Under the pieces are notes generated by a model that ran no database searches, was not told the origin of the DNA, and worked only from the letters and a program-made list of their open reading frames with translations. Positions 1,168-15,485 of a stretch of DNA of 64,000 bases are shown here, piece by piece. The DNA comes from an uncultured virus (IMG/VR IMGVR_UViG_3300009154_000049) (Duplodnaviria; Heunggongvirae; Uroviricota; Caudoviricetes): IMG/VR virus record IMGVR_UViG_3300009154_000049, one strand, 5' to 3'. Numbering within the stretch: position 1 is the stretch's first letter; every line of letters starts with the position of its first letter. Position numbers and translations under genes: made by a program.

Positions 1168-1195
1168 TTGACAACGATCACAGCGGTGTTATAGT
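1168..1195 (+). promoter_or_regulatory. sigma70-type promoter driving the large ncRNA
   Basis: TTGACA-N16-TATAGT with TG extension; the -10 box ends 9 nt before the ncRNA 5' closing strand. Confidence 0.8.
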
Positions 1196-1204
1196 AATTC
1201 TATA

Positions 1205-2097
1205 GACGCTGAGCACGGCAACGTTCACAGCGCAGAAATTGGGGGCTTGGCCTCAATAGGATAAGCGCAGTGATGCGCCCAAAGCTGGAATGCTCACATA
1301 CCAGCGCTGTGCGAACAGTCCATCTAAGCAAGCCTGCTCACCCTGGAAACAGGGCCTTAGCTCATCAAACGGCTGAGGTAACAATGAAGCTGGTGTTGTG
1401 GAGAGAACGGATGTTCAAGCGCCCGCAAGGGTAACGCAGGCGTCCGGAGAGTAACAGGTGGTGCTGACCTCACAACAGACCAACCAGCCAACTGGTATGA
1501 GAAAGGGTAGTGTTCGTGTCCGAGCTTCGCAGGCAAGGGCTAGAGCGCAGTATGCGTGGTGATTGGTGCGCCCGAGGAGGAGCGCGTCAGTTGTCGCAAA
1601 ATACCACGGAGTAGCCGGCAGGTGAAAGGTATGCGGCGTGTTGTATTGAGTGGGGCAAAACTCCATTCAGCAGCTGAAGTAGCACGTCGTTGTGGGTTTG
1701 CACATAGCTCATTTGGTAGAGCAATCCTAGCATAAAGGATCGGTAGTGGGTTCAATTCCCTCTGTTGAAAAACGCAAAGTCTACTTCGGTTGGATGTGTA
1801 AGATGTCAAACGCTTGGGGCGCAAGCTAACCAAGTCCAGAGAAAGCTCGCAAGGCCTATCTGGTTCATACATGGGGGTTCGTAACGACTTAGCGGTCGTG
1901 AATAGCTCGCAAGGCTAACGGGATGGATTGTGTGGAGTAGCATCCAGCGACAGGTCTACTGCCTGACCTTATAAACGGCGACATTGTCTATGGACCCAGT
2001 GACTGGTCACAGCACAGGGTGGATGTCGGGAGAAAGCGGCTCGCAAGGCCAGTGATAATGCCCGAGGCATAGATGTAAGACGTGTAATCTCAGCGTC
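1205..2097 (+). ncRNA. large structured ncRNA, probable GOLLD-class RNA (~893 nt)
   Basis: No credible ORF; 5' GACGCTGAG (1205-1213) is the exact reverse complement of 3' CTCAGCGTC (2089-2097); many GNRA-capped hairpins; internal tRNA-like domain; own promoter and downstream hairpin; located in a phage tRNA cluster. GOLLD assignment rests on size, context and architecture, not a covariance-model search. Confidence 0.8.
1698..1770 (+). pseudogene. tRNA-like domain (CAT anticodon) embedded in the large ncRNA
   Basis: TA-GCTC-ATTTGGTA-GAGC D arm, ATCCT-AGCATAA-AGGAT anticodon arm, GGGTTCAATTCCC T arm; mismatched acceptor stem, no CCA. Confidence 0.8.
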
Positions 2098-2102
2098 CGC
2101 AA

Positions 2103-2133
2103 AGTGGCTCTAATGGGGCCATTTCTGCTTTTT
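2103..2133 (+). terminator. hairpin plus T-rich tail after the ncRNA (terminator or processing site)
   Basis: AGTGGCTC-TAATG-GGGCCATT then TCTGCTTTTT. Confidence 0.55.
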
Positions 2134-3094: not shown

Positions 3095-3709
3095 ATGATA
3101 AGCACCGTAGCCAGCACCGCACTCGTGCTAGTCAGGGAAGGTTTCGAGAGCGTGCTGCTGACCAGCATGATTGCCGCTGCCTTGCCAGAGCACCATAGGC
3201 GCAGCATCAACATCAACTTCCTGGTCACGTGGTGCATCACGCTGATCGCGGGATGGTTTGCCGTGGACATCATATGGCCCTATATCGAACATATAGAGCA
3301 TGTGATGATGATCGTGACTGCGCTGGTGCTGCTCTACATATTCTTCAACAGCAGGGCCATCTTCCAGCATGCCAAGGCCCATGCCGACCAAGTCAGAGAC
3401 GGCAGCATCTGGACAGTGCAGCTCACGGTGTTTTTGATCTGCCTGCGCGAAGCCTTGGAATCCACGGTGTTCCTGGGCAGCGAGATACATTCTGACCCTG
3501 CTGGCGTAGTGCAGGGGTTGCTGCTGGGACTGCCTGCCATGCTGCTGCTGATTTGGTCCGTGTCCCTGGCCAACAAGACGACCAAGAGCCTGATCAATCG
3601 CATCATGTTTCGCTACGTAGGCTACGCGCTGCTGGCCATGGCCATCTATTACCTGTTCCATGGCATGACCGAGCTGGCCGAGCAGGCATTTGGCATCAAC
3701 CTGCTCTAG
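3095..3709 (+). CDS. FTR1/EfeU-family iron permease
   Basis: Two RExxE motifs (REGFE, REALE), multiple hydrophobic helices, GAGGA RBS before ATG 3095. Confidence 0.85.
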   Translation: MISTVASTALVLVREGFESVLLTSMIAAALPEHHRRSININFLVTWCITLIAGWFAVDIIWPYIEHIEHVMMIVTALVLLYIFFNSRAIFQHAKAHADQVRDGSIWTVQLTVFLICLREALESTVFLGSEIHSDPAGVVQGLLLGLPAMLLLIWSVSLANKTTKSLINRIMFRYVGYALLAMAIYYLFHGMTELAEQAFGINLL

Positions 3710-4404: not shown

Positions 4405-4478
4405 GCTCTCATAGTATAAAAGTATTACACCGTATTGGTAATGCGGAAACGCAGGGGCGGTACCTGCTGGGAGCACCA
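4405..4478 (+). tRNA. tRNA-Thr(GGT) with non-canonical D and T loops
   Basis: GCTCTCA/TGGGAGC acceptor, CCGTA-TTGGTAA-TGCGG arm, T stem GCAGG/CCTGC with loop GGCGGTA, D loop lacks GG, ACCA. Confidence 0.8.
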
Positions 4479-5870: not shown

Positions 5871-6296
5871 ATGAACGTGAACGAAAAAGGTGTAACAGGT
5901 TTAATAGAAGTTATCAGGGATCTAAACCGTAAAGGCTACGAATGCTTTACGCCTTTTAATGATTTCAGCGCCGTTGATTTGATAGTAGTGAATAAAGATT
6001 ATCAAGTTAGACGCTTACAGGTCAAATATAGAGCATTTGATAAAGTAGATCAGATACATTTAGAACTTTTTAGTATAGTAAACGGTAAAAAAATTCCAAT
6101 AAATCGCACAGCAATAGATGCTTATGCTATCTATATTCCAGATGTAGATTGTGTTTGCTATTATCCAATATGCGATATAGCTGCGGATAAAAAAAGCTTT
6201 ATTGTGCGAAAATCACAGGGCAAGAAGACAATAAACGTTGACAAAAAGCCAGCTCCAGTATATAGTGAGTTATTAGACGAGATGAGATTGTGGTAA
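5871..6296 (+). CDS. free-standing PD-(D/E)XK endonuclease (I-Ssp6803I/PDDEXK_5-like homing endonuclease)
   Basis: KG..G...(E)..P....S.VDLIV....RLQVKY pattern; visibly AT-rich relative to flanks; stop codon abuts tRNA-Ser. Confidence 0.75.
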   Translation: MNVNEKGVTGLIEVIRDLNRKGYECFTPFNDFSAVDLIVVNKDYQVRRLQVKYRAFDKVDQIHLELFSIVNGKKIPINRTAIDAYAIYIPDVDCVCYYPICDIAADKKSFIVRKSQGKKTINVDKKPAPVYSELLDEMRLW

Positions 6297-14471: not shown

Positions 14472-15485
14472 ATGCGCAAGCTAGCAACTGTACGTAGGAT
14501 CGATGCTATCCAACCAATCCCTGATGCTTATGCCATCGAATGCGCAGTGGTAGGCGGTTGGAAAGTTGTAGTTAAGCGAAGTGAGTTCGCAGTAGGCGAT
14601 CTTGCTGTGTACCTTGAGATCGATTCTTGGGTACCGCATGAACTTGCTCCGTTCTTGTCGAAAGGTTCTGAACCTCGTGAATACAACGGTGTGAAAGGTG
14701 AACGTCTTCGCACTGTAAAATTGCGTGGGCAAATTAGCCAAGGATTGCTGTTGCCTTTGACTTGTATTCAGATTGATACTACGTGGGATGCTATTGAAGG
14801 TTGGGATGTTACTGGCATCCTTGGTATCCAAAAGTGGGAACCTCCAATCCCTGCACAGCTGGGTGGACAGGTCAAAGGCAACTTCCCCGGCAGCATCCCC
14901 AAGACAGATCAGGAGCGCATCCAGAATCTCAGTGGCAAACTGGATGATTGGAAATCACGTGGTTACCACTGGGAGGTCACTGAGAAGCTGGATGGTACCA
15001 GCATGACAGTGTTCTTGGAGCGCGATGGACAATTCGGAGTGTGTGGACGCAACTGGGATCTTGCCGAGACCGATGACAACAGCCTGTGGCGTGCTGCCCG
15101 AGCGAATGATCTAGAAAGCAAGCTGCGCGATCTGGGCAAGGCCATCGCCATCCAGGGTGAGCTGATCGGCGAAGGCATCCAAGGCAATGCCTACCGTATC
15201 AAGGGGCAGCAGTTCTGGGTCTACGATGTCTACGATATCAGTGACACTCGCTATTGGTCGGCCATGGAGCGCCAACGGCTCATAGGCTATCTCGGTCTCA
15301 ACCACGTGCCTCTGATCGATGCAAGCGAGCTGGATGCTGATGTCCCCACTCTGCTGCAGTGGGCTGAGGGCAAGAGCCAGCTGTGCGGCACCACTGAGCG
15401 CGAGGGCTTGGTCTACAAGTGCATGGAAGATCCGGAGATCAGCTTCAAGGCCATCAGCAACAAGTTCCTGCTAAAGAATGGTTGA
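14472..15485 (+). CDS. RNA ligase (ATP), DRB0094/Rnl5-type
   Basis: N-terminal OB domain (MRKLATV...EIDS...KLRGQISQGL), TEKLDGTS motif I, QGEL.G, REGLVYK, FKAISN. Confidence 0.93.
   Translation: MRKLATVRRIDAIQPIPDAYAIECAVVGGWKVVVKRSEFAVGDLAVYLEIDSWVPHELAPFLSKGSEPREYNGVKGERLRTVKLRGQISQGLLLPLTCIQIDTTWDAIEGWDVTGILGIQKWEPPIPAQLGGQVKGNFPGSIPKTDQERIQNLSGKLDDWKSRGYHWEVTEKLDGTSMTVFLERDGQFGVCGRNWDLAETDDNSLWRAARANDLESKLRDLGKAIAIQGELIGEGIQGNAYRIKGQQFWVYDVYDISDTRYWSAMERQRLIGYLGLNHVPLIDASELDADVPTLLQWAEGKSQLCGTTEREGLVYKCMEDPEISFKAISNKFLLKNG

Follow-up and report, generated by a model that had tools for sequence, protein, structure and literature searches.

In one subfamily of phage GOLLD RNAs, selection appears to have kept a tRNA cloverleaf, its D/T elbow and about 4 bp of the acceptor helix and to have let the CCA end go, that is, to have preserved the shape of a tRNA and not a working tRNA; on the comparison of homologous sequences, we put this reading at roughly 90%. 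The copy described here lies in a window of 64,000 nucleotides (the whole stretch of DNA that was analysed, from the uncultured Caudoviricetes virus IMGVR_UViG_3300009154_000049). This unit is real and under selection and, on the features tested, it is not a functional tRNA. The window is phage DNA, since the 49 proteins scanned gave matches to families of tail, virion and clamp-loader proteins as well as to an RNA ligase. The features discussed below are as follows.

1168..1195, + strand: sigma-70-type promoter-like site upstream of GOLLD, 11/12 matches with an extended TG (consensus match only)
1202..2100, + strand: GOLLD RNA of about 850-900 nt with approximate ends, placed by the Rfam match and RNA contigs (5′ end inferred from the promoter-like site and the contigs)
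1635..1690, + strand: hairpin conserved in GOLLD, bulged by 9 nt at 1674-1682, directly before the linker, from the Rfam alignment
1674..1789, + strand: predicted linker-closing pseudoknot helix, 1674-1682 with 1781-1789, which competes with a previously proposed outer helix
1698..1770, + strand: tRNA-shaped domain with a broken acceptor stem, no CCA and the loop AG-CAT-AA; not chargeable as encoded
1701..1766, + strand: what is left of the acceptor helix: 4 bp across the family, 3 bp in the window copy (1702-1704/1763-1765)
1707..1722, + strand: D arm with G18-G19; 100% of cells paired in the family alignment, 4/4 pairs covarying
1724..1740, + strand: anticodon arm, with a loop (1729-1735) seldom found in the family, whose consensus is CU-NUU-AA
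1746..1762, + strand: T arm with a UUCAA loop and one U·U mismatch in the window copy
2102..2131, + strand: terminator-like hairpin and T run past the GOLLD 3′ end (consensus match only)

GOLLD RNA and the unit in its linker

The RNA that carries the unit belongs to the GOLLD family by its covariance model: positions 1633-2096 match RF02032 with 191.2 bits against a gathering threshold of 150. This Rfam model covers only the 3′ part of GOLLD, and the unit falls in its unstructured variable linker. The setting is also that of GOLLD, an RNA of about 800 nt within a phage tRNA array, with tRNAs flanking it on both sides and RNA contigs of 630-940 nt. The promoter-like site is the sole one in positions 1000-2900, where shuffled sequences average 1.1 sites, and together with the terminator-like site it brackets about 900 nt, both being consensus matches only. 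In lake metatranscriptomes, all 24 RNA runs listed contain at least half of the words of positions 1200-2300. Single RNA contigs span 1194-2137, 1248-2099, 1448-2075 and 1446-2080 and bridge the unit in 4 of the 4 runs examined, evidence that consists of contigs without strand, ends or levels and in which DNA carry-over is possible. Because these contigs bridge the unit, it is present within the long GOLLD RNA, and excision of a fraction is still compatible with them. The first-pass annotation had described the unit as grafted into a giant RNA. The large RNA stands, but it is a member of a known family, and the insert is an old, family-wide domain and not a local event.

Several other elements of the window touch on tRNA. 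A tRNA at 4405-4475 (+), with a GGT anticodon, unusual D and T loops and a CCA end, scored 47.1 bits with Rfam and was missed by ARAGORN. An RNA ligase (PF09414 with PF21189; phrog_968), possibly a tRNA-repair enzyme, is encoded at 14472-15482 (+). Small genes in or beside the tRNA array (2533-2739, 3095-3706 and 5871-6293, all +) encode a DUF1127 protein, an FTR1-like permease and a PD-(D/E)XK endonuclease that adjoins tRNA-Ser.

ARAGORN called a tRNA-Met(cat) at 1697-1771 of the window, and positions 1698-1770 matched Rfam RF00005 with 38.3 bits (gathering threshold 29), the lowest of the 11 Rfam tRNA matches in the window. The cloverleaf of a functional tRNA is present, including the D-loop GG and the TTC loop: the D stem (1707-1710/1719-1722) forms 4/4 pairs and the anticodon stem (1724-1728/1736-1740, letters ATCCT/AGGAT) forms 5/5; the D arm, anticodon arm and T loop are recognisable, as had been noted. 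The seven-pair acceptor stem of a functional bacterial tRNA is lacking, with 5/7 pairs formed and the two mismatches noted earlier located at G1700·G1767 and C1701·T1766. CCA is not encoded, as claimed, and since all other ARAGORN tRNAs in the window (11/11) end in CCA, its absence is specific to the unit. The loop at 1729-1735 indeed reads AG-CAT-AA, which places A32-G33 where functional tRNAs have Y32-U33. The earlier list of features was thus accurate for what it named, but it omitted the A at position 32 and a U·U mismatch at 1747:1761 in the T stem (the T loop being 1751-1757). Taken alone, the 93-nt sequence folds only modestly better than its shuffles (z -1.82).

Conservation of the cloverleaf and loss of the acceptor end

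So that tRNA features would not bias the choice, homologues were sought by a motif that lies upstream of the unit. We obtained at least 273 oriented loci, comprising 217 with a long linker, 10 with a short linker and 46 unassigned; the last consist of 39 without the upstream anchor of the parser, mostly chance motif matches though partly true GOLLDs (unit-bearing or not), and 7 without the 3′ anchor. The 217 long linkers gave 147 distinct sequences, and 146 after one mis-parsed locus (L135) was dropped; the family counts given here are samples among the matches listed. Two loci (L123 and L124) do not match the search motif and were inspected by eye. The GOLLD threshold was passed by 12 of 12 sampled homologue loci. 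The flanks of the homologous sequences share a median identity of 66% with those of the window. As controls, ordinary tRNAs from the same loci were processed with the same parser, which parsed 40 of 41. Covariation was assessed on 49 representatives (80% clustering) aligned by sequence only, and changes were counted on a flank tree with 105 tips carrying the unit, where recombination among GOLLDs inflates the counts. Exact motifs derived from the window matched 0 and 1 viral contigs, and a search of plasmids gave two weak matches, one with a similar unit. A Pseudomonas plasmid of 910 kb (CP136011.1; L395:1001-1190) has, where nothing is annotated, a GOLLD-like linker that resembles these and bears a Lys-type loop.

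Of the 14 D-, anticodon- and T-stem pairs, at least 13 form in all 146 distinct linkers among the matches listed (49/49 representatives), while the same parser finds this in 2 of 98 shuffled linkers. Every cloverleaf pair (18/18) shows compensatory change in the alignment of representatives. The cells of the alignment are paired at 96.3%, a value reached by 0 of 500 shuffles and set against 35-49% in slid registers. The shuffle control takes no account of relatedness, but its outcome is matched by the measures of pair type and by the slid control. Without prompting, RNAalifold returns a cloverleaf whose acceptor has 4 bp. The tertiary bases U8, A14, G18, G19, A21, U54, U55, C56 and A58 changed 0-8 times each on the 105-tip tree, whereas single stem positions changed up to 41 times. 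Decay of the D and T loops among homologues, named beforehand as what would speak against a tRNA-shaped domain, was therefore not seen.

The acceptor end has a different fate. Between 134 and 143 of the 146 units retain its inner pairs (4:69 to 7:66), and 69-84 retain its outer pairs (1:72 to 3:70). Seven Watson-Crick acceptor pairs occur in none of the 146 units versus 27 of 40 neighbouring tRNAs; with G·U allowed, the figures are 21/146 and 38/40. Acceptor G-C pairs average 1.0 in the units versus 4.8 in the neighbours, and CCA is encoded in 3/146 versus 38/40. ARAGORN nevertheless calls a tRNA in 118 of the 146 units. The proposal of a tRNA-shaped domain that keeps its elbow and has lost charging is thus supported across the family. 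One clade (L280, L282 and L365, and also L267, L373 and L386) has CCA or CCA-like letters and up to seven acceptor pairs; its anticodons are odd, TTA (stop) and GAT for example, and it is possibly nearer to the ancestral tRNA. One locus (L024) appears to retain only a Lys-like anticodon hairpin.

A model of the domain built from the units was applied to 80 loci selected through a 3′ GOLLD motif, not all of them confirmed GOLLDs, and 7 proved to have the domain. Because of this low share, and because short-linker relatives exist (10/273 and a few parser misses), the domain seems dispensable for GOLLD as a class, and by these comparisons it is confined to one subfamily. Short-linker GOLLDs of the same subfamily (L129, L188, L191, L260, L276 and L309; L264; L145 and L172) occur at three places on the unrooted flank tree, which fits repeated loss.

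The unit had also been placed on an imperfect outer helix, 1692-1700 with 1775-1784. This helix does form in the single-sequence fold of the window copy, but its 3′ strand pairs elsewhere in the family: the core 1676-1682/1781-1787 is paired at all seven positions in 146/146 homologues with compensatory changes, and the pair 1679:1784 occurs in four types, while the outer-helix pair 1692:1784 is G·A in 53/146. Since 1676-1682 sits in the bulge of the hairpin 1635-1690, the alternative pairing forms a pseudoknot that closes the linker. Only the inner part of the outer helix, about 1697-1701/1774-1778, is still possible, and it is too invariant for a covariation test.

Identity and possible exchange of the anticodon loop

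Among the matches listed, 136 units have seven-base loops, with the anticodons GTT (51), TTT (35), CTT (10), TCT (8), CAT (2) and 15 further triplets, stops included; in 10 of the 146 units the loop is not 7 nt. An NUU anticodon is present in 100/136 loops, U33 in 127/136 (40/40 in control tRNAs), U35 in 107/136, U36 in 123/136 and U36-A37-A38 in 110/136. Position 34 changed 35 times on the tree, and positions 33, 36, 37 and 38 changed 6-10 times each. The loss of decoding features that had been noted is accordingly true of the window copy but not of the family. The NUU-AA bias may come partly from ancestry, U-turn geometry and A/T-rich genomes. The AriB site U36AAU39 was found in 8/136 loops, and U39 in 11/146 units; the window copy has A39 and lacks the site. 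When a fixed pairing partner for the anticodon loop was sought elsewhere in GOLLD, none exceeded 50/120 sequences and the matches were driven by the commonest loop. For the 5′ flank of the unit, a pairing partner in 105/120 sequences consisted mostly of G·U pairs and overlapped an Rfam stem, and is not claimed.

A scan targeted at CAT returned 1 genuine unit in 108 matches listed, versus 29 in 119 for GTT, and both CAT loops of the 136 belong to the window's own lineage; a second, unrelated CAT unit (L466) likewise has G33. Initiator tRNA-fMet is marked by three G-C anticodon-stem pairs, 29-31/39-41, and the loop CU-CAU-AA. The units do not have this feature, as GGG at 29-31 occurs in 0/146. 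On these comparisons, the window's AG-CAT-AA is one local allele and uninformative about methionine.

The relatives nearest to the window have different loops. The Magneto and phiCbK copies show 8 differences in 913 nt, and the 7-nt loop accounts for 5 of these; phiCbK and BL57 show 51 differing positions, 1 in the loop. Between the window and its relative L353, 13 changes fall within the 17 nt of the anticodon arm and 3 in the remaining 305 nt, in a comparison drawn from linker-deduplicated pairs and thus biased toward differences. A later test without this bias used pairs picked on one flank at <3% divergence. The loop differed at 17/105 and 23/112 sites versus 5.7% and 4.5% in the other flank; sites inside one loop block are not independent, and such site statistics overstate the excess, which comes down to few block events (loop differences in 7 and 8 of 16 pairs), Magneto versus phiCbK being the clearest. 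At greater distances the loop mostly evolved no faster than the flank, and in the closest pairs the elbow bases differed at 0/144 and 3/144 sites. These observations are suggestive of an exchange of loop alleles between phages. phiCbK-like Caulobacter phages carry the domain (L121:1585-1677, L122:1585-1677 and L124:1585-1677), and in 18 GenBank records it is labelled tRNA-Lys (8) or tRNA-Gly (10).

Possible roles and relation to known systems

We propose that one GOLLD subfamily may have taken over an old tRNA gene and made it a permanent part. The role that we tentatively favour, at rather less than even odds, is that of an unchargeable mimic that would bind a host reader of Lys/Asn-type anticodon arms, most likely an anti-phage anticodon nuclease; a synthetase or a modifying enzyme would be the alternative partner. 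A GOLLD oligomer would display many copies of the mimic, and its loop alleles would be exchanged as phages meet differing host proteins. We infer that the anticodon arm is still read because U35 and U36 are kept beyond the need of geometry and the loop alleles seem to move between phages. PrrC cuts tRNA-Lys(UUU) (PMC10264068); the targets of AriB are Lys(UUU), Thr(UGU) and Asn(GUU), and AriB loses activity on a U39A substrate, its authors raising a possible inhibition by viral tRNAs (PMC12409363). The RNA ligase (PF09414) of the same phage counts for the mimic as well. Against it, the AriB site is found in few loops, and the window's own loop matches no target found. Moreover, the linker of solved GOLLD faces the cage interior (PMC12286853), so the bait would be hidden unless the cage opens. 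An extension of the mimic, that the subfamily is an RNA-only counter-defence device whose loop allele is swapped to match the tRNA-cutting defence of the host, strikes us as rather unlikely. If true, it would give GOLLD a first function, and phiCbK and Magneto, near-identical except in the loop, would be a natural experiment.

Ranking close behind the mimic is the possibility that the domain serves by shape alone, the L shape acting in folding, in processing (by RNase P or other elbow readers) or in ribosome docking of GOLLD, with U33, A37 and A38 kept for geometry and the loop changing by drift or by escape from cutting. We regard this reading as credible, since the elbow bases are the most conserved and the avoidance of U39 would fit escape from AriB-type cleavage, but loop geometry needs neither U35 nor U36, which are kept all the same. 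RNase P measures a 12-bp acceptor/T helix, longer than the 4+5 bp here, and the RNA contigs pass the unit unbroken. A pull-down of GOLLD with ribosomes is mentioned in PMC12286853, where the reference cited is an unrelated paper. Far less room is left for the remaining explanations, all of which fit poorly. One of them takes the unit for a stored working tRNA that leaves GOLLD by excision, receives its CCA from the host and serves in translation; storage was proposed in PMC12286853 and PMC12990946. This idea draws on the frequent ARAGORN calls, on the minority that close seven acceptor pairs with G·U, on three soil-type copies that retain CCA and on the compatibility of the contigs with partial excision. 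We nevertheless give it little credence: nothing constrains the outer acceptor pairs, hardly any unit has CCA though the neighbours encode it, some loops are not 7 nt, anticodons include stop-type and odd triplets, the window copy has A32-G33, and for a pseudo-tRNA in the GOLLD of Mycobacterium aubagnense no expression was detected (PMC6582537).

The role suggested by the first-pass annotation, a decoy for VapC-type nucleases that target tRNA-Met, can be set aside as very improbable. The window copy does carry CAT, as does the unrelated L466 with its G33, and VapC toxins are described as cutting tRNA-fMet in the anticodon stem-loop (PMC7180214). However, CAT is confined to 2 of the 136 loops, both in the window's lineage, the closest relatives differ in the loop, and no unit has the initiator-type stem. 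Just as improbable, and already largely refuted for the family by the comparative data, would be a neutral relic, a captured tRNA gene decaying in a tolerant linker. The unit has the lowest tRNA score in the window and extra mismatches, and the short-linker relatives indicate that the domain can be lost. Neutral decay would hardly leave compensatory changes at all 18 pairs and near-invariant tertiary bases in the face of such diverged flanks.

GOLLD RNA with a tRNA in its variable linker was reportedly seen in the studies of Weinberg 2009 and Morgado 2020. In the portion consulted, Kretsch et al. (2025; PMC12286853) likewise place tRNAs in this linker, read them as possibly stored and released, and establish the nanocage for other GOLLD members; a review, also available in part, mentions an embedded tRNA-Phe in GOLLD and the storage idea (PMC12990946). 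Our case resembles these published RNAs in family, slot, phage tRNA-array setting and length (>800 nt). Unlike in those RNAs, the insert here is a domain that its subfamily conserves, with an acceptor of 4 bp, no CCA and apparently exchangeable loops. In the GOLLD of M. aubagnense, an inner tRNA-like element was scored as pseudo (Behra et al., 2019; PMC6582537). From its description in the available text, it is alike in being a tRNA-like element inside GOLLD with no separate expression detected there, but it is a single case without comparative analysis. The tRNA-Lys of T5, set against PARIS/AriB, shares with our domain a phage-borne tRNA fold, an altered anticodon arm, an emphasis on Lys/Asn and a position 39 that is not U (PMC10264068 and PMC12409363); unlike the GOLLD domain, which has no acceptor end and stays in a large RNA, such T5-type resistant tRNAs are charged and restore translation.

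The slot and a pseudo-tRNA are already known; new are the anatomy seen across the family and the apparent exchange of loops. A literature search returned no account of a conserved short-acceptor, CCA-less GOLLD domain, though Weinberg 2009, Morgado 2020 or the supplementary files of PMC12286853 may hold one. Reuse of the tRNA shape without decoding has reported parallels in Y RNA, said to be a tRNA mimic that keeps the acceptor/T half without an anticodon arm, and in the yjdF riboswitch, said to have a tRNA-mimic domain. Compared with Y RNA, the GOLLD domain retains the anticodon arm and loses the acceptor end.

To our knowledge, GOLLD has solved cage structures and no known function. In this widespread subfamily the insert cannot be ordinary cargo, as the shape and much of the loop are selected and the amino-acid end is discarded. 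The GenBank calls of tRNA-Lys, tRNA-Gly and tRNA-Leu in the GOLLD linker slot are probably mis-annotations. The window's CAT copy alone is of little importance; the anatomy of the domain narrows the possible roles of GOLLD, and the cultured Caulobacter phages allow a direct test.
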